64,000 bases of DNA. Source: Elusimicrobiota bacterium (lineage in GTDB: Bacteria > Elusimicrobiota > Elusimicrobia > JACQPE01). Of this stretch, positions 5,969 to 60,789 are shown piece after piece. Position 1 is the stretch's first letter. The number at the start of each line of letters is the position of its first letter. A program made the position numbers and the translations under genes. The notes beneath the pieces are model-generated. The model had not been told where the DNA came from and searched no databases. It saw nothing but the letters and a program-made list of their open reading frames with translations. Location of the stretch: contig JACQJO010000029.1 in the NCBI GenBank assembly GCA_016205025.1, positions 97,759-161,758 of the forward strand, read 5' to 3'.

Positions 5969-8239
5969 TTATCTGGGCCGGCCCCGGAAACGGTCTCTCG
6001 GTCCGCCGCCCTGCGGCCCCCTTCCACCGGGCCTTGGGGGGCGCAAACCGAAACCTCTCCTGCCCTCGTTCGGGCCGCCGCCGCGGCCGGCATAATCGCC
6101 GCCGCCGCGATTGCCGAAAGACCTGGGGGGAGTGCCCTGGCCCTGCGATTCGCCCTGCGGGGCATCGGCGCGCACCAGCCGGATTTTACCGGAAGGATCA
6201 ATATCCGCGATTCTGACTTCAACGGGATCTCCCTCTTGGAATAGATCGCTCGGATGATTAATGCGCTGCTGGGACATCTGTGAAATATGCAGAAGGCCGT
6301 CGCGTCCGGGCAAAATCTCCACGAACGCGCCAAAGTCGGTTATTGAAACCACTTTGCCCTGGTACACTTTGCCCACCTCGGGCTCCTGGGTCATGCCCTG
6401 GATTTCCTGCTTAGCCTGCTCCACCTGGTCCCAATCCTGCGAATGAATGAAAATGCGGCCGTCGTCTTCCACCTCGATCTCAACGCCGAACGTTTCGCTC
6501 AATCTTCGGATATTCTTGCCGCCCGGGCCGATCAAGGCTCCGATTTTTTCAACCGGGATCGTCACGACCGATATTTTCGGCGCGTAGATGGATAAGCTCG
6601 AACGCGGGAAATTCAGAGCCTGGATCATTTTATCCAGAATCGCCAAGCGCGCGATGCGCGCGGCCTCAACCGCTTCGGTCAAAATTTCAAGCGTAATGCC
6701 CGGAATTTTGACATCCATCTGAAAACCGGTCACGCCCGAACGCGTTCCGGCCAATTTAAAGTCCATGTCGCCCAGATGGTCTTCCAGACCCATGATGTCG
6801 GTTAAGACAAAATGCTTGCCGCCCTCCACGATCAATCCCATCGCGATTCCGGCCACGTGATCCTGCAAAGGCACGCCGGCGTCAAACATAGCCAAAGAAC
6901 CGCCGCAGACGCTGGCCATGGAAGTCGAGCCGTTGGACTCCAGAATGTCGGACACCACGCGCACCGTGTAAGGAAAATCTTCCTCTTTGGGCAAAACGGC
7001 CACGAGCGATCTTCGCGCCAGCGATCCATGCCCGATTTCGCGCCGCCCCGGGCCGCGGTCCGGTCTTACCTCGCCGACCGAGAAGGCCGGGAAATTGTAA
7101 TGAAACAGAAAACGCTCCTTAAAATCCCCCTCCTGCTCTTCCATGGACTGCATATCCTTGGGGGAGCCCAGCGTCACGGTAGCTAACGCCTGGGTCTGGC
7201 CTCTCTGAAACAAAGCCGAGCCGTGAGTCCGCGGAAGAAGGGACGTCCGGCAGGAAATCGGCCTGATTTCATTGATTTTGCGGCCGTCGGCGCGCGCGCC
7301 GTCTCGAACCAGCATGGCGCGCTCCTCGGCGTGAAAAATATCTTCCACGATGCCGCCGATGTGGCCCAAATGATTCGGGAATTTGGCCTCCAGGCGCGCG
7401 GTGAAATCTTTTTTCAAGGCTCTTAATTCGACGTCCAATGCTTTCTTGGGAAGAAACTTTTTAACGATCTCCCTGATTTTGGAAGCCGCCTCGTCTTTGA
7501 TGGCGTTTTTCACGTCTTGATTCCATTGAAATGGCGTGAATGTCATTTTAGGCTTGCCGATCTTTTTGCGGATCTCCTCTTGAATATCGCAAAGCCGGTC
7601 CAAAGGTCCCTTGGCCGCTTTCAGGGCCTCAAGAATGGTTTCTTCGGGCACGATTTTGGCGCCGCCTTCCACCATCACATAAGCGTCCTTGGTCGCGGAA
7701 ATGACCATGTCGATGTCGCTTTCCTGCAGTTCCGCGAATGTCGGATTAAACACGAAGGAACCCCCCACGCGCCCCACGCGAATGCCGGCCACCGGTCCGT
7801 TAAACGGAATGTCGGAGATCACCAAGGCCGCGCTCGAGGCCAACAGCGTCACGACATCGGCGTCGTTTTCGCCGTCAACGGAAAGCACCAAGTTTTGAAC
7901 CATCACTTCGTGGTAAAAACCTTCCGGGAAAAGCGGCCGCAAGGTCCGGTCCGTCAAGCGGGAGGATAAAATTTCGGTTTCCTTGGGGCGGCCTTCCCTG
8001 CGAAAAAATCCGCCGGGAATCTTTCCCGTGGCGTAAGTTCGCTCGCGGTAATCCACCGTCAGGGGAAAAAACGCGGCGTCTTTTTTGGGATCCGGGGACG
8101 CGCAAACAGAGGAAATGACCACGGTTCCACCGATGGTGGCCATCACCGAGCCGTTGGCCTGCTGGGCCACGTGGCCCGTCTGAAAATTAATGGTTTTGCC
8201 GCCGATATCTATGGCGAATTCAATTGGTTCTGACATCAT
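5969..8239 (-). CDS. pnp: Polyribonucleotide nucleotidyltransferase (PNPase) with a C-terminal Arg/Gly-rich tail
   Basis: 756 aa. Two RNase PH domains, KH, and S1 ('GKVVSITDFGAFVEI'). The last ~70 aa are an RGG-rich low-complexity extension ('GRGGGPNEGRRGFGLRPPRPGGRGPQGGGPRDRFRGRPR'). Confidence 0.95.
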   Translation of the reverse strand: MMSEPIEFAIDIGGKTINFQTGHVAQQANGSVMATIGGTVVISSVCASPDPKKDAAFFPLTVDYRERTYATGKIPGGFFRREGRPKETEILSSRLTDRTLRPLFPEGFYHEVMVQNLVLSVDGENDADVVTLLASSAALVISDIPFNGPVAGIRVGRVGGSFVFNPTFAELQESDIDMVISATKDAYVMVEGGAKIVPEETILEALKAAKGPLDRLCDIQEEIRKKIGKPKMTFTPFQWNQDVKNAIKDEAASKIREIVKKFLPKKALDVELRALKKDFTARLEAKFPNHLGHIGGIVEDIFHAEERAMLVRDGARADGRKINEIRPISCRTSLLPRTHGSALFQRGQTQALATVTLGSPKDMQSMEEQEGDFKERFLFHYNFPAFSVGEVRPDRGPGRREIGHGSLARRSLVAVLPKEEDFPYTVRVVSDILESNGSTSMASVCGGSLAMFDAGVPLQDHVAGIAMGLIVEGGKHFVLTDIMGLEDHLGDMDFKLAGTRSGVTGFQMDVKIPGITLEILTEAVEAARIARLAILDKMIQALNFPRSSLSIYAPKISVVTIPVEKIGALIGPGGKNIRRLSETFGVEIEVEDDGRIFIHSQDWDQVEQAKQEIQGMTQEPEVGKVYQGKVVSITDFGAFVEILPGRDGLLHISQMSQQRINHPSDLFQEGDPVEVRIADIDPSGKIRLVRADAPQGESQGQGTPPRSFGNRGGGDYAGRGGGPNEGRRGFGLRPPRPGGRGPQGGGPRDRFRGRPR

Positions 8240-9585: not shown

Positions 9586-10043
9586 TGGTGCGCCAATCCA
9601 AATTTTCTTTGCGCCGAGATGCGGCTGATCACGTCGCCAAACTCCGGATTCTTGTTAAGGAGATACTCAAAATCCTGGGAAAGAAGAGTGAATATCTTGG
9701 ATTCTTTGCCGGCAACGGCGCTGGCCAGACGAGGAGCTTTTTCCCAAAGCGCCATTTCGCCAAAAATTTGGCCCGGACCAAGGCAGGCGATCTCTCTGGA
9801 AAAAAATAGGAACGCTTTTTTTCGAATAACAATTTCTCCTTCATAAACTACGAATAGGGCGTCGCCACCGTCCCCTTCTTTGAATAGGGTGTGGCCGCGG
9901 CCGCATCGAAACAGCCCGAACGAGGGAATAACTTTTTCTAATTGCCCGGTCGTCATGCCGCCAAAAAAATGGATTTTCGCGAGGGTGGACAAAAGCCACT
10001 TCTGGTCGGAAGGTCCGATATTTAATTGTTCCAGCTTAGGCAT
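9582..10043 (-). CDS. Cyclic-nucleotide-binding domain protein (stand-alone cNMP-binding domain)
   Basis: 153 aa with the cNMP-binding signature 'FGEMALW...A.A'. The stop overlaps the ribF start. Confidence 0.65.
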   Translation of the reverse strand: MPKLEQLNIGPSDQKWLLSTLAKIHFFGGMTTGQLEKVIPSFGLFRCGRGHTLFKEGDGGDALFVVYEGEIVIRKKAFLFFSREIACLGPGQIFGEMALWEKAPRLASAVAGKESKIFTLLSQDFEYLLNKNPEFGDVISRISAQRKFGLAHQ

Positions 10044-10746
10044 AGTTTACGCTAGCCATTAAATTTTTGGATATATCCTGAAGACGTAAACCGTCGTCGC
10101 AATGATACGGTCCGACCGAAACCCGCGTTAATGAAGCGAGGTAAGCCCCGGTGCCCAAGGCCCGTCCAAAATCGCGCGCCAACGCCCGAATATAACAACC
10201 CTTGCCGACTTTGGCCTCGAATGAGAAAGAAGGTGAACAAAGTGAGAAAGGTGAACAAGGTTCGATTATTTTAAACTCATATACTTGCACCTTACGAGCC
10301 AACGGCTGAACCATTTGACCTCTACGGGCAAGCTCATAGAGGCGCTTGCCGCCCCAATGAAGCGCCGAATAAACCGGGGGTTCCTGCTCAATTTCACCTA
10401 GAAAACTTTCCGCTATTCTCTGGAAATCATCTTCTCGAACTTTTATCACCTTGTTCACCTTGCTCACCTTTCTCACCTTCCCCGTCAGGTCATCCGTATC
10501 TCTTTCCTCCCCCAGCGCGATCGTGCCGCGGTAAACCTTTGGCATATCCATTAGCTGCCCTGACAATTTTGTGGCTTTGCCCAAAAGAATCAACAACACG
10601 CCCTCGGCAAAAGGATCCAACGTGCCGGCATGGCCTATTTTCGATAAGGAGATAAGGTCCTCTCGCCTCATCGTTCTTTTAATGTGCCTGATCACGTCAT
10701 ACGACGTGATCCCGGCGGGCTTGTAAACGTTAAGGATGCCATCCAT
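10036..10746 (-). CDS. truB: tRNA pseudouridine(55) synthase
   Basis: 236 aa 'NVYKPAGITSYDVIRHIKR...GHAGTLDPFAEGVLLILLGKATK'. The catalytic Asp lies in 'GTLDP'. The gene contains a pair of internal inverted repeats (10221..10262 and 10446..10481). Confidence 0.9.
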   Translation of the reverse strand: MDGILNVYKPAGITSYDVIRHIKRTMRREDLISLSKIGHAGTLDPFAEGVLLILLGKATKLSGQLMDMPKVYRGTIALGEERDTDDLTGKVRKVSKVNKVIKVREDDFQRIAESFLGEIEQEPPVYSALHWGGKRLYELARRGQMVQPLARKVQVYEFKIIEPCSPFSLCSPSFSFEAKVGKGCYIRALARDFGRALGTGAYLASLTRVSVGPYHCDDGLRLQDISKNLMASVNYA

Positions 10747-16482: not shown

Positions 16483-18312
16483 TTATTGCGCCGACAGGCG
16501 CGCGCGATCCATCGGGTGGGGCAGAGTATTTTGAAGAATCATCTCTTCGGCAAGTTTTAAAATCTTATTTTGGGCCTGCAAAATCCGTTCAACGGGCGGC
16601 CGCCCCACGGTGACGAGGTACTCCTGCAAAATCTGGCTTGTTTTCTTGGGCAGGGAGTGAAAAATTTTATCCTTTAAGCCGGGGTCCGACAGGCCGTCTG
16701 AAATCGCTATGGCCAATTCATGAATCTGCACGCGCGAGAGAAGCATGTTTAACTCCTGCTCCGACCAATAGGTTATATCCCCAAAAAGCAAAACCTTGCC
16801 GCGCACGATCCGGTAAAGATTGGCGTCTTGGCTTTCGATCGTTTTAAGCATTTTCTCGCGCAACAGCAGATCAACGGCGTTTAACGTGTTGACAATTTCC
16901 TGCGCGCCGCCGACGACCCCGGCGATGCGGTGCTCCAGTTCCTCTTTCAGGCGCTCCATTAATTCCGTTTCCACCATTTGAGGCTCAGCCATCGCCTTGA
17001 TGACCTCTCCCAAGCGCTCGGATGGGAACTGCTCCAAGAACGCCTTTTTAGTGGCGACCGGAAGGCGGGCTACCACCAGGGCGATGTGGTTCGGATTTTC
17101 CTGCCCGATCAAGTGATAAAGGTCGGCCACGCGCGCCGGCGCGATCTTAATCTCCGCTTCGCCCGGCGCTTCGCTTTTTTGAGCGGCCATTTCGATTAAT
17201 TTTTCATCTCCGGCGCCGCCCGGCAACTCGTCTTCCCCCTCCTTGTCCTTGGCCATCCTTCCCTCAAGGTAAGCCCGCAGTTTATCCGGAAACTCAAATT
17301 TCACCTCGATGCTTTTTTGCCTGGCGGCTGAAAAAGCCACCACCCATTGCGCCAAAACTCCCACCAAGGAACGCCAAGTAATCAAAGCCAAAAACGTGGT
17401 GGCAACCAAGCCGATGATCAGAATAATCCCGATCGTGCCCCACTGAAGCACGGTGCCCAAAACCTTGGAATCCTTCAATAACTCCATGAAAGGATTGGGC
17501 ATGCTGAATCGCGTCACGACCAAACGGTCCCCCCGAGCCGCGTCCAGCGTTAAAAATGACCCGATCAAGGTCTGCACCTTCGCCTCGGCGTCCGCCGGCA
17601 AAGAATAATCCAGGGCGACCTTGACGAAAACGGATTTAACCTCCAGGCCCACCGCGTAAAGAAAATTGGGGTCCGAGAAAGGGTAACGCCCATCCGCCGC
17701 CTTCCTGGAACCCGGCGGCGCGCCGCCGGTTGGAACCGAAACCCCGGTCCCCACGGCCGAAAACCCGGGCAGGATAAAGGTGTCGGTTCCGGAGGCCTGG
17801 GGATCGCCGCTGTCCGCTATGCCCGGAAAAAGCCATTTATAACTGGAAGGATTTTCAGCTCCGGCATCGTCTGCCGGCGCGTCCTTGGCTGTCCGGCCTA
17901 ACTGGCCGGACAAATAAGCCGAAAGGCTGTTTTGCAATTCTTCCTTGAGTTTTAACGAAAACCCGACGTCCACATGCACGAAAACCTCGGCGTTTCCGGT
18001 GCCGAACGTTTTATCCAGGTGCTCCTGAATTTTATTCTTAAGATCACGCGACAGGTAGCTGGAAGCCTGAACAATCGCGCCTCCGGGCTCCAGGGGAAAG
18101 GCGAATGGAGGAAAGGCACTAAGGCACAAAGGCACTAAGGCACTAAGAATAACAGCTCTTCTTAGCTTAGCGCCTAAGTGCCTTTTTGCCCCAGTGCCCA
18201 AGTGCCTAAGTGCCTCTATGCCTATCTTGCCCTTTATCACTTTTTCCCCTTTTAGATTAATCCCAAAACCCCCCCCGCGCAACCCCCAACACCAAAAAGT
18301 AGGGACAGACAC
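16483..18312 (-). CDS. Membrane protein with a C-terminal FliG-like (FliG middle/C-terminal, MgtE-N-like) domain, possibly a FliF/FliG-like fusion
   Basis: 609 aa. The C-terminal ~250 aa align by eye with FliG. One TM helix 'IGIILIIGLVATTFLALITW' lies mid-protein. The N-terminal aa ~24-67 are encoded by hairpin repeat 18110..18240, and the start codon is uncertain. Confidence 0.45.
   Translation of the reverse strand: MSVPTFWCWGLRGGGFGINLKGEKVIKGKIGIEALRHLGTGAKRHLGAKLRRAVILSALVPLCLSAFPPFAFPLEPGGAIVQASSYLSRDLKNKIQEHLDKTFGTGNAEVFVHVDVGFSLKLKEELQNSLSAYLSGQLGRTAKDAPADDAGAENPSSYKWLFPGIADSGDPQASGTDTFILPGFSAVGTGVSVPTGGAPPGSRKAADGRYPFSDPNFLYAVGLEVKSVFVKVALDYSLPADAEAKVQTLIGSFLTLDAARGDRLVVTRFSMPNPFMELLKDSKVLGTVLQWGTIGIILIIGLVATTFLALITWRSLVGVLAQWVVAFSAARQKSIEVKFEFPDKLRAYLEGRMAKDKEGEDELPGGAGDEKLIEMAAQKSEAPGEAEIKIAPARVADLYHLIGQENPNHIALVVARLPVATKKAFLEQFPSERLGEVIKAMAEPQMVETELMERLKEELEHRIAGVVGGAQEIVNTLNAVDLLLREKMLKTIESQDANLYRIVRGKVLLFGDITYWSEQELNMLLSRVQIHELAIAISDGLSDPGLKDKIFHSLPKKTSQILQEYLVTVGRPPVERILQAQNKILKLAEEMILQNTLPHPMDRARLSAQ
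18110..18240. repeat. GGCACTAAG/CTTAGTGCC octamer hairpin element (copy 3 of 3)
   Basis: 'ggaaaggcactaaggcacaaaggcactaaggcactaagaataacagctcttcttagcttagcgcctaagtgcctttttgccccagtgcccaagtgcctaagtgcctctatgcct'. In the FliG-like ORF frame it encodes 'RRAVILSALVPLCLSAFPPFAFP' (signal-peptide-like). Confidence 0.75.
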
Positions 18313-18352
18313 TGCTTTTTTTAAAAAAAGCAGTGTCTGTCCCTACTTTTTG
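18294..18352. repeat. REP-like perfect palindrome, family 1 (core TAGGGACAGACAC), intergenic copy
   Basis: 'aaaaagtagggacagacactgctttttttaaaaaaagcagtgtctgtccctactttttgg'. It shares the GGGACAGACAC...GTGTCTGTCCC arms with the copies flanking the transposase at 18988..19040 and 19716..19769. Confidence 0.85.
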
Positions 18353-18390
18353 GTAACCGTTTACAATCCACACCTGGCTTTTATAAGTAC

Positions 18391-18717
18391 ATGTGGTACA
18401 GTATGTACATGAATAAAAAAATGGGTGATTGGCCCAGCGAACTAAACGTTTCTGAAGCGCGGCGCCTTCTGCCCAGCTTAATCCATTTTCTGGAACGCCA
18501 TCCTGATCGGATATTTAAAATTAAACAGCGCCAGCGCATGGTCGCGCAGCTGCAGGCGCCGCCGCGGCTGGCTAAAAGCGGACTGGCGGCCGAACGGTTG
18601 CTTCGTTTGGCTAAAAAACGCCGCTCAAAAAAAATTTCAACCACCATAAAGCCATTAAATGGCTCGAGCGATCAAAAGAAAGCAAAAGTTCTTTCCACGC
18701 GACCTGGGAAATTTTAA
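18391..18717 (+). CDS. Phd/YefM-like antitoxin
   Basis: 'LNVSEARRLLPSLIHFLERHPDRIFKIKQRQRMVAQL' fits the Phd/YefM N-terminal pattern (sEAR.nL...ve.h...I.r....vAvL). The likely start is M11 (~18421). Upstream lies palindromic operator-like DNA 'gtacatgtggtacagtatgtacatg'. Confidence 0.5.
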   Translation: MWYSMYMNKKMGDWPSELNVSEARRLLPSLIHFLERHPDRIFKIKQRQRMVAQLQAPPRLAKSGLAAERLLRLAKKRRSKKISTTIKPLNGSSDQKKAKVLSTRPGKF

Positions 18718-18989
18718 GTGAAACGGTTACGCTTCTAAGAATTAAATCCGGCTATGTGCCGGCGGCCCGTTTTGCCCAAGACATTATTCCAGCGCTGCAT
18801 ATCGCCGCCATCGATGAATCGCTGCGCCGGGAAGCCTTAAACATATTTCTGCGATTCGCCCGGGATAAGAAGCTTTCTTTTTGCGACTGTCTTTCCTACG
18901 CGGCCCTGACAACCATTTTGCGCGGCCTGCCGGCGGCCACCTTTGACCGGCATTTCAAGATGCTCGGCCTACCCCTCCTTGACGGATAA
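18634..18989 (+). pseudogene. PIN-domain (VapC-like) toxin remnant lacking its own start codon and first catalytic Asp
   Basis: The frame is open from the TAA at ~18631. 'AAIDESL...LSFCDCLSYAALTTILRGLPAATFDRHF' matches the PIN C-terminal acidic motifs. The position aligned to the first catalytic Asp reads Ser ('WEILSETV'). There is no ATG/GTG/TTG until the GTG at 18756. An A8 homopolymer lies at the frame junction with the antitoxin. Confidence 0.45.
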
Positions 18990-19769
18990 ATAGGGACAGA
19001 CACTATTTATTAGAAAATAAATAGTGTCTGTCCCTATTTATTAAAACGGGACGTCCCCTGATCTTGGGGGTTAAGTCCTTCTGCAGAACCTGCTCCATGC
19101 GGCTAATAAACTCTTCTTTTCCCGTGGGGCGGCCACGATGAGTGGCGTGGCGAATGCCGCTTAAAAATCGCGCATCTTCTTCGTCAGTCAAATAATCTGA
19201 CCAGTTTGGTATCTCCTCCAATAAAGGACAATAGGAAAGAATGGGGTTGGGTATTTTGGAAATATGAGCCTTGGCGCTCGACCAAAAATATTCTTCCGCT
19301 TTTATAACAAGTCCGGCACGCACCGGATTTCTTTCAACATAACGAACTGCCGCATAGGTATACTGCTCATCTAAAACACTAGAAAAAAATCGGCCTTGCC
19401 AGAGATGTCCGCTCCGTTTGGCCTTAGCGTTAAAGTACAAGGCATAGGTAGCGTGAAGAGAAGCCATGGTTTTTGCTATCGAATTTTGATTTTCAGGCAC
19501 AACAATAAAATGTACGTGATTGGTCATTAAACAGTAAGCCCAAATCTTCAGACCAAACTTCTGCGAGCATTCTTTTAACCCACCAAGATAAAATCTTCTA
19601 TCCTGATCATCAAGAAAAACATTTTCTTTATTGTTTCCCCTCTGCGTAACATGGTGAGGCAAGTCAGGCACGACAACTCTCGCATCTCTGGGCATGGAAA
19701 AATAGTACAAAATAATAAATAGGGACAGACACTATTTATTAGAAAATAAATAGTGTCTGTCCCTATTTA
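18988..19769 (-). mobile_element. IS200/IS605-family (RAYT-like) tyrosine transposase unit flanked by family-1 perfect palindromes
   Basis: Palindromes 'aaatagggacagacactatttatt agaa aataaatagtgtctgtccctattt' at 18988..19040 and the same at 19716..19769 bracket the tnpA ORF. Confidence 0.8.
19003..19710 (-). CDS. tnpA: IS200-like / REP-associated tyrosine transposase (HuH Y1)
   Basis: 235 aa. HuH motif 'TNHVHFIV' and a C-terminal catalytic-Tyr region 'YVERNPVRAGLV'. 'MPRDARVVVPDLPHHVTQRGN' is the probable true start (M6). Confidence 0.8.
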   Translation of the reverse strand: MYYFSMPRDARVVVPDLPHHVTQRGNNKENVFLDDQDRRFYLGGLKECSQKFGLKIWAYCLMTNHVHFIVVPENQNSIAKTMASLHATYALYFNAKAKRSGHLWQGRFFSSVLDEQYTYAAVRYVERNPVRAGLVIKAEEYFWSSAKAHISKIPNPILSYCPLLEEIPNWSDYLTDEEDARFLSGIRHATHRGRPTGKEEFISRMEQVLQKDLTPKIRGRPVLINRDRHYLFSNK

Positions 19770-21724
19770 TTGGAAGCGGTGCAGGAATTCGGAAAGGGCT
19801 TTGTTGTCGGGGTTGATCTCAAGGGATTTTTTCCACATTTCGAAGGCCTTGTCGCGAATGCCGAGCGCGAAGTAGGAAGAACCCAGCCGCTCGTAGGCCA
19901 AGGCGTTGTTGGGGTCCAGCTTAATGGCGTCTTCGCAGGCTTTGGTGGCCATTTCGAATCGGCCCTGTCTAAAGAAGCGATCCGCCTCCTGAAGCTTGGC
20001 GATGATGTTGACGCGCGGCGGCAACAGCGGCTTGGTTTTTTCCTCCGCGCGGCCGGATTCCTCTACCATGGTTTCGAAGATGCGCCGGGTGATCTCGTCT
20101 CCCGGATCCTCCGCCATGGCCTGGCGCATCAATAAAATGGCGCCGTCTAAATTGGCCTCGATATAGTCGGACAACCCGCGCAGCATATAGGTATATTTTC
20201 TCTTCAACTCGGAAGGCGCGTCTTCGGACGGCTTTTTCATTTCCTCGGTCGTCAACCGCAGCCAGCCGATCACCTTCTCGGCGCGCGAACGGCGCACCCC
20301 GACCACCTGGTCCGTGGGATTGGTGGCCAATGACTTATCCATCAACCGCGCGGCCTCAAGGAACCGCCCGGCCCGGTAAGCTTCCTGCGAATGGTCCAGG
20401 TAACCCTGCGACAAGCTCTTTCTCTCGCGCACCTTACTGCCGCCCAGCCACACCCCGACCGAAAACCGGCTGGAGTTGCCCAGTTCATGCATCATCATGG
20501 CGTAATCAAGCTGGACGTTGCCGTATCTCATGCCCAGGCCTCCGGAAGCGGCGTTGGTCCCGCCCATGCCCAAGCGCAGAGCGGCCGGCCCCAACCCGTA
20601 CTCCAAGCCCACCCTGGTCACCGCGCCAACCTGCTCAAACTGGCTCGAAACCTTAAGCGCTCCTTCGAATAGTCCGTAGCTGGCGCCCAAAACAACATTT
20701 AAGGGCAGTTCGTCTTCGGTGCCCACTCCGGTAAACAGCACGTCGCGCAGAACCAACCCTATTTCCCCATGTTTAAACGCCTGATAATCCATGGCCATAT
20801 CAAGAGAGGCCAATGATGACGACGCGCCCGGCAGGCTTCGGGTCAAATACTTTCCGGAGGCGCCAAAAGAAAAGGAGGAGCCGAACCGGTTGCCGTACGA
20901 TAAACCCAAGCCTTGGCTCATAAAACTGTAATCGCCCACCAAATTGTTATTGTCATCCCTTTGCTCAACAGCCCCGATGCCAAGGCGCACCACCGAAAGC
21001 CCCACGGTACCGGCCGACAGCATGGGATAAGCCCACCCCGCGTAATCGTAAGTGGCGCCCTCAAACAAACCCGCGTGCAGGAAGTTAAAATTCATTCTCT
21101 CAAGATAAGACAACCGCGCCGGGTTCCAGTAACCGGCCGTGGCGTCTTCGGCCATGACGATGGAGGCGTTGCCGAGACCCAGGGAACGAGCGCCGGCTCC
21201 AAAAGTCCAAATATCGCCAGCTCCGCCCCCTAACTCTTTACCAAAAGAGTTAGGGGGAAAGGCGACAGAGGCCAAAAAGGCCACGGAGGCCAAAGACGCT
21301 ATAATAAAATTGTGGCAAAGACGTTCAAGGATCTTATTGTTTGGAAAGAGGCTAAATTGTTGGTCCACAGCATTTACCGACAAACATCCGGTTTTCCTAA
21401 AGAAGAAACTTATGGACTTATCTCCCAAATGCGCAGAGCAGCGCTTTCCGTTCCCAGCAATATTGCCGAAGGCTGGGGTTCGCATTCTACGGACAAACAA
21501 TTTCTTCAATATCTCAACAACGCCAGCGGCAGTCTTGCGGAACTCGAATCGCATATCGCCATTGCTGCCGATGAAGGTTTTCTTGCTAGCGCGCACAAAA
21601 ACCAACTTGAAGACCAAGTGAAACGCATAAGCTATCTCATAAACCGTTTTAGAGATCGCCTTAATTAAGATTACCATCGCCTCTATGGCCTCTTTGGCGT
21701 CTTTCGCGTCTTTCGCCTTTCTCA

Positions 21725-21725
<1 letters not shown>
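19767..21725 (-). CDS. Outer-membrane beta-barrel protein of the FadL/PorV-like type with C-terminal TPR repeats (5' end uncertain)
   Basis: The N-terminal mature region 'GAGARSLGLGNASIVMAEDATAGYWNPARLSYL' matches the FadL/PorV 'NPA' motif family. A Gly/Tyr/Ser-rich alternating-strand region of ~300 aa follows. The C-terminal ~200 aa carry TPR repeats ('AYERLGSSYFALGIRDKAFEMWKKSLEINPDN'). The first ~140 codons of the ORF overlap the opposite-strand four-helix-bundle gene and a repeat arm. The hydrophobic 'ASLASVAFLASVAF' stretch is encoded by repeat 21258..21300. Confidence 0.6.
21226..21300. repeat. Left inverted-repeat arm plus a hairpin flanking four-helix-bundle cassette 1
   Basis: Hairpin 'ccccctaactctttaccaaaagagttaggggg' (21226..21257). 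It is followed by 'aaaggcgacagaggccaaaaaggccacggaggccaaagacgc', which is inverted relative to 21683..21722 ('ggcctctttggcgtctttcgcgtctttcgcctttctc'). Confidence 0.7.
21312..21668 (+). CDS. Four-helix-bundle protein (TIGR02436 / '23S rRNA intervening-sequence protein' family; Avd-like fold)
   Basis: 118 aa. 'FKDLIVWKEAKLLVHSIYRQTSGFPKEETYGLISQMRRAALSVPSNIAEGWGSHSTDKQFLQYLNNASGSLAELESHIAIAADEGF' matches the family hallmarks (DL.VWqkA...iy.lt..FPkeE.ygL.sQ.rRAa.Si.sNIAEG.gr....e...fl.iA.GSl.El.t.l). Confidence 0.85.
   Translation: MAKTFKDLIVWKEAKLLVHSIYRQTSGFPKEETYGLISQMRRAALSVPSNIAEGWGSHSTDKQFLQYLNNASGSLAELESHIAIAADEGFLASAHKNQLEDQVKRISYLINRFRDRLN
21683..21722. repeat. Right inverted-repeat arm of four-helix-bundle cassette 1 (tandem GCGTCTTTC units)
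   Basis: 'ggcctctttggcgtctttcgcgtctttcgcctttctc'. It lies between the 4HB stop and the giant-gene stop. Confidence 0.7.
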
Positions 21726-59344
<37,619 letters not shown>

Positions 59345-59679: not shown

Positions 59680-59737
59680 AAAAATGGTACCAGGTACCAA
59701 ATGGCCAAAAATATCCATTTGGTACCTGGTACCATTT
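59680..59737. repeat. Family-2 palindrome, copy b (intergenic)
   Basis: 'aaaaatggtaccaggtaccaaatggccaaaaatatccatttggtacctggtaccatttt'. Confidence 0.85.
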
Positions 59738-60013
59738 TGGATTTGGATTATTTTGCCTTCTCTTGCCGCTGGTTCTCCCTGCAGAAACACAAAAAGAACC
59801 ACAAAAGGCAATAAATAAAAAAGCCCCGGCGCCAAAAGCACAATTCCAGCGCCCAGGGACCCCAATGAAAGAAACAGGGAAATAGGGTCTCCCACCATTA
59901 AATATGTACCTCACCCCCCGCCCTCGGTCAAGTAGGGTCAAAACATACTTTTGGGGACAAGTGAATAAGGTGAATCAGGTGACAAAGGAACCAGAAAAAA
60001 TGGTACCAGGCAG

Positions 60014-60072
60014 AAAAAATGGTACCAGGTACCAAATGGGCACTAATGCCCATTTGGTACCTGGTACCATTT
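60014..60072. repeat. Family-2 palindrome, copy c, at the 5' end of transposase 2, preceded by a truncated extra arm at 59995..60010
   Basis: 'aaaaaatggtaccaggtaccaaatgggcactaatgcccatttggtacctggtaccatttgtg'. Confidence 0.85.
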
Positions 60073-60789
60073 GTGCATTTGTGCTTAAATCCAATAGTTA
60101 TGCCAAGACACCCAAGAATAGAAATGCCTGGAGGTTTTTACCACGTTCTGAACCGTGGCAACAACAAGCAAGCATTGTTTCGTAATGCGGGTGACTACGT
60201 ATTCTTCTTAAACCTATTGGAAACTGCTTCTAAAAAATGGCCCTTTAAGGTGCACGCTTATTGCCTAATGCCCAATCATTACCATCTCTTTATGGAAACC
60301 ACAGAAGGACACTTATCGCGCCCGCTGCATCTTGTTAACAGAGCCTACGCCGCTTATTTTGCTAGAAAATACGAATTTACTGGACACGTATTCCAAGGAA
60401 GATTTAAATCGCTCATGGTTGAAAAAGAAGGCTATCTTTTAACTCTTTCTAGATACATCCACCTTAATCCCATCAAAGCCAAGCTGGCACAAAAACTGGA
60501 AGATTATTCCTACTCCAGCTATGCCTGCTTCATGGGACTTAGATCAAAGCCGAACTGGCTGGATATCGAAACCACGCTAAGCTACTTCGGATCAACAAGC
60601 ATACTCCAGCAAGAACAGTACAAGCTTTTCGTGTTAAGCGAGATGTTCGAATTGCAAAACGAACCTTTTTATCAAGCCGCCGATGATGTGCTGGAAGGAA
60701 AATCCAAAGCGCTCATGAGATTAAAAAAGGTACTCCACTTAAAAACAGCGCCTAGCACCGCAACGGAAAATAAGGTACTAATTAATTAA
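60019..60789 (+). CDS. tnpA: IS200-like / REP-associated tyrosine transposase (second copy; probable true start ATG 60100)
   Basis: 'MPRHPRIEMPGGFYHVLNRGN...CLMPNHYHLFMET...GHVFQGRFKS...SRYIHLNPIKAKL'. It carries the HuH motif and a catalytic Tyr region. It has the same architecture as 19003..19710 but diverged sequence. The N-terminal 27 codons of the maximal ORF are translated palindrome. Confidence 0.8.
   Translation: MVPGTKWALMPIWYLVPFVHLCLNPIVMPRHPRIEMPGGFYHVLNRGNNKQALFRNAGDYVFFLNLLETASKKWPFKVHAYCLMPNHYHLFMETTEGHLSRPLHLVNRAYAAYFARKYEFTGHVFQGRFKSLMVEKEGYLLTLSRYIHLNPIKAKLAQKLEDYSYSSYACFMGLRSKPNWLDIETTLSYFGSTSILQQEQYKLFVLSEMFELQNEPFYQAADDVLEGKSKALMRLKKVLHLKTAPSTATENKVLIN

Follow-up and report, generated by a model that had tools for sequence, protein, structure and literature searches.

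The DNA analysed here is a 64-kb stretch (64,000 nt, referred to below as the window) of contig JACQJO010000029.1, positions 97,759 to 161,758, from the Elusimicrobiota bacterium assembly GCA_016205025.1. It contains a gene for a Y1/HUH tyrosine transposase, a family of seven long palindromes and the remains of a toxin–antitoxin (TA) module (Table 1). Three of the palindromes, here called a, b and c, are intergenic and lie within 1.5 kb, between a FliG-like gene and a gene for a TPR protein. The TA module lies between palindromes a and b, and the transposase gene between b and c. The other four palindromes are found in frame inside a giant open reading frame (ORF). The palindrome coordinates come from an inverted-repeat search of the whole window.

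Table 1. Features of the palindrome–transposase–TA region and of the giant ORF, in window coordinates
Feature	Position	Strand	Description
Palindrome a	18291-18354	none	32-nt arms, 100% complementary, no loop; subtype AAAAAGTA-GGGACAGACAC-TGCTTTTTTT; between the divergent FliG-like gene (-) and the TA promoter (+)
Putative TA promoter	18360-18411	+	TTTACA (18360-18365), 16-nt spacer, TATAAG (18382-18387), read from the sequence
Operator-like conserved sequence	18394-18411	+	TGGTACAGTATGTACATG; putative function
Phd/YefM-fold antitoxin, truncated (putative)	18409-18717	+	ORF 18391/18409; homologous part ends near 18636
Deletion junction	18627-18637	+	beside the A8 tract (18627-18634); gaps at columns 336-467 of the DNA alignment, in the window only
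PIN (VapC-like) toxin remnant	18637-18989	+	N-terminal CDTSFF and first catalytic Asp absent
Palindrome b	18986-19041	none	26-nt arms, 4-nt loop AGAA; subtype ATAAATA-GGGACAGACAC-TATTTAT, terminal inverted repeat (TIR) dimer
Y1/HUH tyrosine transposase, TIRYT type	19003-19695	-	230 aa, begins MPRDARVVVPDLPHH
Palindrome c	19714-19771	none	27-nt arms, loop AGAA
In-ORF palindrome	28620-28674	none	same repeat family; encodes GKIGTDTNCDTIGVCPYFS
In-ORF palindrome	29925-29985	none	same repeat family; in frame in the giant ORF
In-ORF palindrome	37320-37380	none	same repeat family; in frame in the giant ORF
In-ORF palindrome	48546-48606	none	same repeat family; in frame; one arm mismatch
Giant ORF	59344 to 21725	-	12,539 codons, 37.6 kb

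All three intergenic palindromes are perfect, and they have the core TAGGGACAGACAC in common. Written as TAGGGACAGACAC(T/C), this core has 14 matches in the window, which correspond to the seven palindromes read on both strands, whereas 0.11 matches are expected by chance from dinucleotide-preserving shuffles of the window. Palindromes b and c are identical across 56 nt, with the loop in the same orientation. Palindrome a, lying about 630 bp from these transposase-flanking dimers, is unlike them in the alignment: the copies at 18291 and 19714 have a common 14-nt core with short flanks, but their inner stem, outer stem and loop differ. The tetranucleotide preceding the core is GTAG only in the copies at 18291 and 29925 and ATAG in the other five, and it varies in other genomes as well. 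As single-stranded DNA, palindromes a, b and c have folding energies between -26 and -35 kcal/mol and z-scores between -13 and -14.5 (-35.3 kcal/mol and z = -12.9 for palindrome a). An Rfam scan of the whole window at gathering thresholds gave no match. Each arm can also be drawn as a small hairpin of its own with GGACAGACA as the loop. This fits palindromes a, b and c (9–10 of 10 flanking pairs) but not the in-ORF copies, and in 269 arms from other genomes the enrichment of such pairing is modest (6.22 versus 5.31 pairs), 128 of these arms having one contiguous pair only. We rejected the small hairpin as a defining feature of the repeat.

The protein encoded between palindromes b and c scores 56.3 bits against Pfam Y1_Tnp and 21.4 bits against the NCBIfam IS200 equivalog (cut-off 55). 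It has the HuH motif NHVH (in the context NHVHF), the segment HLWQGRF and the tyrosine motif RYVERNP. All 50 positions that are invariant among 25 relatives are kept, those of HuH, WQGRF and RYVERNP included, and the transposase therefore looks intact. It is a 100% match to an Elusimicrobia protein from a metagenome-assembled genome (MAG), while the next relative reaches 59%; the relatives form a very large family of ~220-aa proteins. A PDB sequence search with the transposase gave no match at E ≤ 0.01. The C-terminal region TGRPxG...GRP is conserved between the transposase and its relatives. The relatives stop soon after GRP, whereas the final ~12 codons of the window gene read into palindrome b (19003–19041). 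At the other end of the gene, palindrome c lies 18 nt upstream of the start codon.

Related transposases are accompanied by related repeats in other genomes. We fetched 80 metagenomic loci encoding transposase relatives; in at least 11 of them, GGGACAGnCAC lies ~55 nt upstream of the start codon, and the reverse complement of this sequence follows 17–80 nt past the stop codon. In a general search, TIRs of 16–37 nt were found in 55 of the 72 relatives with enough flanking sequence, and most of these TIRs have a GGGAC-type core (for example, TAGGGACAGCGAC, GGGGACGCAACCC and TAGGGACACTTCCC). Most relatives have a single repeat built on GGGAC(A/G) on each side, whereas the window transposase has a head-to-head dimer on each side. 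From the TIRs of the relatives and the TIRtron literature discussed below, it follows that the family-1 palindromes, as the present repeats were called in a preliminary description of the window, are head-to-head dimers of the cognate terminal repeat. Organisationally, the palindromes correspond to REPINs.

A scan of one genome per species for GGGACAGACAC-N(8-30)-GTGTCTGTCCC found the hairpin dimer in at least 109 stretches. The hosts belong to many phyla and include Omnitrophota, Eisenbacteria, Planctomycetota, Myxococcales, Steroidobacteraceae, Acidobacteria, Lachnospiraceae, Streptococcus uberis and others. The 11-nt core GGGACAGACAC is constant across these hosts, and the inner and outer stems are lineage-specific yet complementary. 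The palindrome exists at many loci per genome in Steroidobacteraceae CTOTU39254, Myxococcales Loclat_bin-06029, Pseudomonadota MAG247 and Eisenbacteria, and one Steroidobacteraceae MAG has at least 12 dimer stretches. Among the matches listed, only a Planctomycetales MAG (L021) also encodes a transposase relative, with 45% identity. A full palindrome with the core seen in the window stands on either side of this gene, and a third palindrome lies ~250 bp off. The three-palindrome layout is that of the window, but there is no gene between palindromes 1 and 2. The preliminary description had placed the three family-1 palindromes at 18294, 18988 and 19716 and had recognised a palindrome–RAYT–palindrome arrangement. 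The palindromes were recovered at the positions in Table 1, and the arrangement recurs in the Planctomycetales locus; in the metagenomic relatives, single repeats occupy these places. A palindrome scan of viral contigs gave no match, and thus there is no sign of phage carriage. The exact core GGGACAGACAC was not found as a cross-phylum dimer in the literature; a full-text search returned only unrelated eukaryotic primer papers.

The four copies inside the giant ORF all share one frame and encode GK(I/V)GTDTNCxT(I/S)GVCPYFS, and they sit just after fibronectin-like 'RDAxGNES' segments. At the site of the 28620 copy, the orthologous giant genes of two other Elusimicrobia MAGs read GNLSDWNG-CYGP (L193) and GN-VSEWNG-CFGP (L194). 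Because these orthologues lack the segment, the 28620 palindrome is a net +15-aa in-frame insertion. Elsewhere, 35 of 117 palindromes fall in stop-free stretches of at least 900 nt; as many of these genomes are GC-rich and yield such stretches by chance, only one locus (L097) can be taken further. L097, from the Omnitrophota MAG JAHISK010000007.1, has a member of the palindrome family at 6471–6509 that encodes ...LGTDTILQKKGVCPH..., and the frame of this palindrome stays open over the entire 8-kb locus. This suggests that in-frame copies may lie inside giant genes in another phylum.

A second Y1 transposase gene is present in the window at 60100–60789 (+). Its 229-aa product has NHYH, FQGRF and YIHLNP, like the TnpAY1 subclass 2.1 considered below, scores 40.8 bits against Y1_Tnp and is 35% identical to the first transposase. 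It has its own, unrelated palindrome family, consisting of GGTACCAGGTACC / AAAATGGTACCAGGTACCAAATGG dimers at 59270–59331, 59681–59738 and 60017–60072, all upstream of the gene. One of these palindromes lies 28 nt before the start codon of the second transposase, and the palindrome at 59270 falls within what appears to be the 5′ end of the giant ORF.

We then turn to the TA module between palindromes a and b. The frame-3 reading of 18600–18989 scores 29.1 bits against the Pfam PIN family (PF01850, cut-off 23.6). The match covers profile positions 16–115 of 120, and thus the N-terminus of the PIN protein is missing. The remnant is 56–61% identical to intact PIN proteins of 139–143 aa, all of which start M..WP.R(I/V)FCDTSFFFACLE.RD, and it keeps the remaining three acidic positions (in SETV, CDC and FDRHF). 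No start codon serves the PIN frame at 18637–18989. Directly upstream of the PIN gene, a small gene (86–127 aa) is found in L001, L003 and L197, where the DNA was available, and in one further relative without DNA. Homology between the products in L001 and L003 and that of window ORF 18391/18409 is clear. Upstream of the homologous antitoxin gene, TGGTACAnTATGTACATG is conserved in L001 and partly in L003, and the promoter-like TTTACA-16-TATAAG is conserved with L001; a promoter scan did not list this putative promoter (18360–18387).

On its own, the window antitoxin has no Pfam or NCBIfam match. Its family is small, with 17 relatives in a HMMER search of 1.8 billion representatives. Ten of the 16 aligned family members match PF02604 (PhdYeFM_antitox; best E = 2.9e-5), and the family profile weakly matches Mycobacterium tuberculosis RelJ/YefM in the PDB (E = 0.5). 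The AlphaFold model (pLDDT 81.6) has the order strand-helix-helix-strand-strand-helix. Nearly all of its top ~44 PDB matches in Foldseek are Phd/YefM-fold antitoxins; the best is the N-terminal domain of VapB46 (E = 0.02), and RelJ, YefM and Phd are also among them. These profile matches and the predicted fold give a positive but weak indication, with weak statistics, that the upstream ORF encodes an antitoxin of the Phd/YefM type at the family and fold level.

In the DNA alignment, the window lacks a block that measures 131 nt in comparison with L001 and ~113 nt in comparison with L003. It begins after LAKKRxxxK of the antitoxin, takes in its VSEDTDRxLY end and the intergenic spacer, and extends to approximately codon 24 of PIN. 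Past 18636, the antitoxin frame is a wrong-frame run through the PIN remnant to a stop at 18715–18717, and a 27-aa out-of-frame tail replaces VSEDTDRxLY. One deletion of ~113–131 bp near 18636 has inactivated both genes. The antitoxin C-terminus, the toxin start codon and the first catalytic Asp are all deleted, and the TA module is non-functional. The preliminary description had identified a TA pair here with a decaying PIN toxin devoid of a start codon, and our results agree with it on these points: PIN scores above the Pfam cut-off, the upstream ORF is placed with Phd/YefM by its family matches and by the AlphaFold/PDB fold, and the toxin N-terminus is deleted with no start in frame. On the other hand, the suggestion that Ser replaces the first catalytic Asp has to be withdrawn, as the ISTT in question is the antitoxin frame across the deletion junction and the CDTSFF segment is absent. 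The A8 homopolymer does lie beside the frame junction, at 18627–18634, but the lesion is a 113–131-bp deletion and not a simple frameshift. Nor is the antitoxin intact, as had been thought; its C-terminus, VSEDTDRxLY, is deleted and what is left is fused out of frame to the PIN remnant.

Three Elusimicrobia MAGs, L193, L194 and L196, have an orthologue of the TPR gene (59–66% identity). The order from the giant gene to the TPR gene is kept in all three, and different genes follow; in L194, an M48 peptidase gene lies between the TPR gene and the FliG-like gene. Neither the transposase, the TA pair nor the repeat exists at the TPR locus in these three MAGs. Since the three related loci carry other genes, the block between the FliG-like and TPR genes is lineage-specific and the spot is variable. 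The GC content is 0.507 in the TA region, 0.439 in the transposase region and 0.55–0.58 in the flanking genes.

Other repeats are also found around these genes. In L194, a ~60-nt direct repeat (AACTATACGACTCATGCAAATTCATTGCATTCCGCTCATCCTGAGCTTGTCG...) lies at 9945–10200, just downstream of the TPR gene, which is another sign that this intergenic spot collects repeats. In the window, a four-helix-bundle gene (PF05635, '23S rRNA intervening sequence protein', 116 bits) lies at 21312–21668 (+) and overlaps the long minus-strand ORF of the TPR gene. It is bracketed by inverted arrays of ~9-nt repeats of the GGCCAAAGA / GGCGAAAGA type (region 21230–21725). L194 likewise has PF05635 at its TPR gene. 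A gene-less inverted array of the GGCACTAAG type, with 33-nt arms that are 85% complementary, is found at 18115–18198, just left of palindrome a, where it overlaps the 5′ end of the FliG-like gene.

We consider it likely that two neighbours lie side by side in this variable intergenic region: a TIRYT-type TIRtron/REPtron with dispersed hairpin dimers, and a dead vapBC-like module. Elements of either kind are known, and no observation shows the two moving as one. The anatomy, the homologies, the deletion and the insertion of one dimer relative to the orthologues stand as observations, whereas catalysis by this transposase and the terminator role of the hairpins considered below are inferred. 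If it works like IS608 TnpA and E. coli TnpA-REP, the Y1 enzyme would bind the hairpin on single-stranded DNA, cut beside it through the catalytic tyrosine and then rejoin the ends. As a result, short non-autonomous dimers would spread while the transposase gene stays in single copy. The window holds seven dimers and one cognate transposase.

Several observations weigh against this interpretation. The transposase scores 72.3 bits against the NCBIfam REP_Tyr_transpos model, which is just under the cut-off of 80. A promoter scan of the window found no sigma-70-like promoter for the transposase, and the TTGACA that follows the left repeat in relatives has the second palindrome arm in its place here. 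Expression of the transposase may therefore rely on read-through from the TPR gene. The three intergenic palindromes cluster within 1.5 kb, as those of a composite element would. The copy numbers of the dimers and of the transposase refer to 64 kb of the genome only. Finally, the nearest genomes are distant (59–66% for the TPR protein), too far for exact insertion boundaries, target sites, an empty site or a target duplication to be recognised.

The hairpins may also be considered from the side of the host. A terminator scan gave 17 sites against 2.6 expected, nearly all of them in palindromes a, b and c, and a T-run follows each of the three hairpins on both strands. The TAA stop codon of the PIN remnant (18987–18989) lies within palindrome b, and that of the upstream TPR gene (19767–19769) within palindrome c; the C-terminus of the TPR protein is 2–5 residues shorter than in its orthologues. 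The hairpins with their T-runs thus probably act as two-way terminators, besides giving stop codons to the abutting genes. One could go further and assume that the palindromes are mainly regulatory for the host, as two-way terminators or mRNA-stabilising hairpins, and are immobile, that their clustering reflects only where terminators are needed, and that the transposase is domesticated or an inert relic. The long GC-containing stems, the T-runs, the excess of terminator sites and the location of palindromes b and c exactly at the 3′ ends of PIN and the TPR gene are in its favour, and in Di Nocera et al. (2013, PMC3733652), the repetitive extragenic palindromes known as REPs are described as often lying downstream of ORFs and as able to give stop codons. 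However, a 37.6-kb ORF, in which termination would do harm, contains four of the copies, and one of these is a lineage-specific insertion. Palindrome a is in a divergent promoter region and not at a 3′ end, and the same core flanks related transposases in many phyla, which argues for recognition by the enzyme. A terminator role is, moreover, compatible with mobility. We regard a mainly regulatory role of immobile palindromes as unlikely.

The preliminary description had proposed a composite mobile unit, in which the palindromes at 18291 and 19714 would be the working ends of a 1.48-kb element that carries the transposase along with a TA addiction cassette as cargo and is, or once was, mobile in its entirety. 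In favour of this, the TA pair and the transposase are framed, within 1.5 kb, by three palindromes of one family, the L193, L194 and L196 loci lack the entire block, and its GC content is lower than that of the flanks. Nevertheless, the two outer palindromes differ in subtype, and the identical pair is the one that flanks the transposase. The four TA relatives examined have no adjacent Y1 transposase, and the three of them with DNA lack the palindrome core. The cluster of three palindromes in the Planctomycetales MAG has no cargo gene between palindromes 1 and 2, and the TA region and the transposase differ in GC content (0.507 versus 0.439). No second high-identity copy of either protein was found in 5.8 billion protein clusters, nor a second copy of the whole block in the databases searched. 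A composite unit is thus improbable. Slightly less credible still is the version in which the whole block at 18291–19771 is or was mobilisable as a TIRYT with hairpin-dimer ends that acquired a TA cargo, which later decayed; if true, it would be a cargo-carrying relative of the REPIN/RAYT systems, which are usually regarded as cargo-free. The comparison of relatives found the segment absent from the three related Elusimicrobia loci, and the profile search with the antitoxin ORF found Phd/YefM homology at the family level, although the window copy alone has no Pfam match. Neither result refutes the proposed mobility, which is therefore left unrefuted and only unsupported as a single unit. An assembly or sequencing artefact, with chimeric joins or an error in the A8 homopolymer, is hardly credible: the source is a MAG and an A8 run does lie at the TA junction, but the missing TA segment of 113–131 nt is far above one base, more than 100 independent assemblies, made in many projects, show the same palindrome architecture, and the in-ORF copies leave a frame of 12,539 codons open.

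The juxtaposition of a TIRYT-type element and a dead TA module thus remains our preferred interpretation. With it, Elusimicrobia, an uncultivated phylum that has been little studied, gains a TIRYT accompanied by dispersed hairpin dimers. In the 12,539-aa gene, the in-frame dimers offer a clean case from nature of selfish palindromes that add Cys-containing loops to a giant surface protein.

The two neighbours can be compared with known systems separately. The dead module resembles VapBC-type TA systems, such as VapBC46 of M. tuberculosis, in having a small upstream DNA-binding antitoxin followed by a PIN toxin of ~140 aa, a beta-alpha-alpha-beta-beta-alpha N-terminal fold in the antitoxin, and a conserved palindromic operator-like sequence in the promoter. 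It differs in that the window module is non-functional after one deletion, to which the antitoxin lost its toxin-binding C-terminus.

REPIN–RAYT systems were reportedly described by Bertels and Rainey in 2011, and the E. coli REPtron, or TnpA-REP, is said to have been described by Messing et al. in 2012. Like these, the window has a Y1 transposase, in single copy within its 64 kb, between inverted-repeat pairs that form long hairpins, along with short, dispersed, non-autonomous doublets, and a cut-and-rejoin reaction on single-stranded DNA may be presumed for it by analogy. However, canonical REPs have 5′ GT[AG]G at the base of a hairpin that is imperfect, whereas the window has GTAG or ATAG and perfect stems of 26–32 bp, much longer than those of canonical REPs, and its transposase falls under the REP_Tyr_transpos cut-off, as mentioned above. 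The E. coli-type REP enzymes are ~165 aa in length with DHLH and YIHYNP motifs, according to Quentin et al. (2018, PMC6006769). With IS200/IS605 elements (IS608 TnpA), the window element shares an HUH/Tyr catalytic core, and in both the gene has hairpins on the same strand as its boundaries. Its tyrosine motif is Y...NP and not Y...Q (PMC6006769), and it is in single copy within the window, has no tnpB, has a long C-terminal extension and scores far below the IS200 equivalog cut-off (21.4 versus 55). Rickettsia palindromic elements (RPEs) and intragenic REPs, as presented in PMC3733652, are in-frame palindromes of ~15–20 residues that leave the ORF open. This likeness is limited to the four copies in the giant gene and does not extend to palindromes a, b and c. 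According to the same paper, RPEs are tagged by CGTC and have no known transposase of their own, whereas the cognate transposase of the in-ORF copies is ~9 kb away.

The closest comparison is with the TIRtrons. In Di Nocera et al. (PMC3733652), TIRYT genes are flanked by TIRs sharing GGGGWSAS, and the TIRs also occur as dimers and clusters. The TIRYTs correspond to TnpAY1 subclass 2.1 and to RAYT Group 1 of Bertels, according to Quentin et al. (PMC6006769) and Bertels et al. (2017, PMC5581495). Subclass 2.1 has NHVH (or NH[YF]H), W[EQ] (or FQ) and YIELNP, of the form Y..(E/H)LNP, a median length of 238 aa (PMC6006769, Table 1), and a C-terminal helix-turn-helix (HTH)-like domain similar to Bac_DnaA_C, HTH_23 or HTH_28; no Pfam match to such a domain was obtained for the window transposase at E ≤ 1. 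The window transposase, low-copy and ~230 aa long, has the NHVH, WQ and Y..(R/L)NP motifs, its flanking core (A/G)GGGACAG / AGGGACAG fits GGGGWSAS (PMC3733652) at seven of eight positions, and the repeats are also found as dimers and clusters elsewhere in the genome. On the other hand, it has YVERNP where the subclass 2.1 motif (PMC6006769) is YIELNP, a difference at two positions, and Elusimicrobia is not among the phyla named in the available parts of PMC3733652, PMC6006769 and PMC5581495. The window transposase is flanked by complete dimers (perfect hairpins of 26–27 bp), whereas TIRtrons have a single TIR. For TIRYTs (Group 1 / subclass 2.1), the association with repeat families has been described as weak or absent, whereas here and at more than 100 loci in many phyla the same 11-nt core GGGACAGACAC forms REPIN-like dimers. 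Because this exact core recurs as dimers, the clade would suit a biochemical study of repeat recognition.

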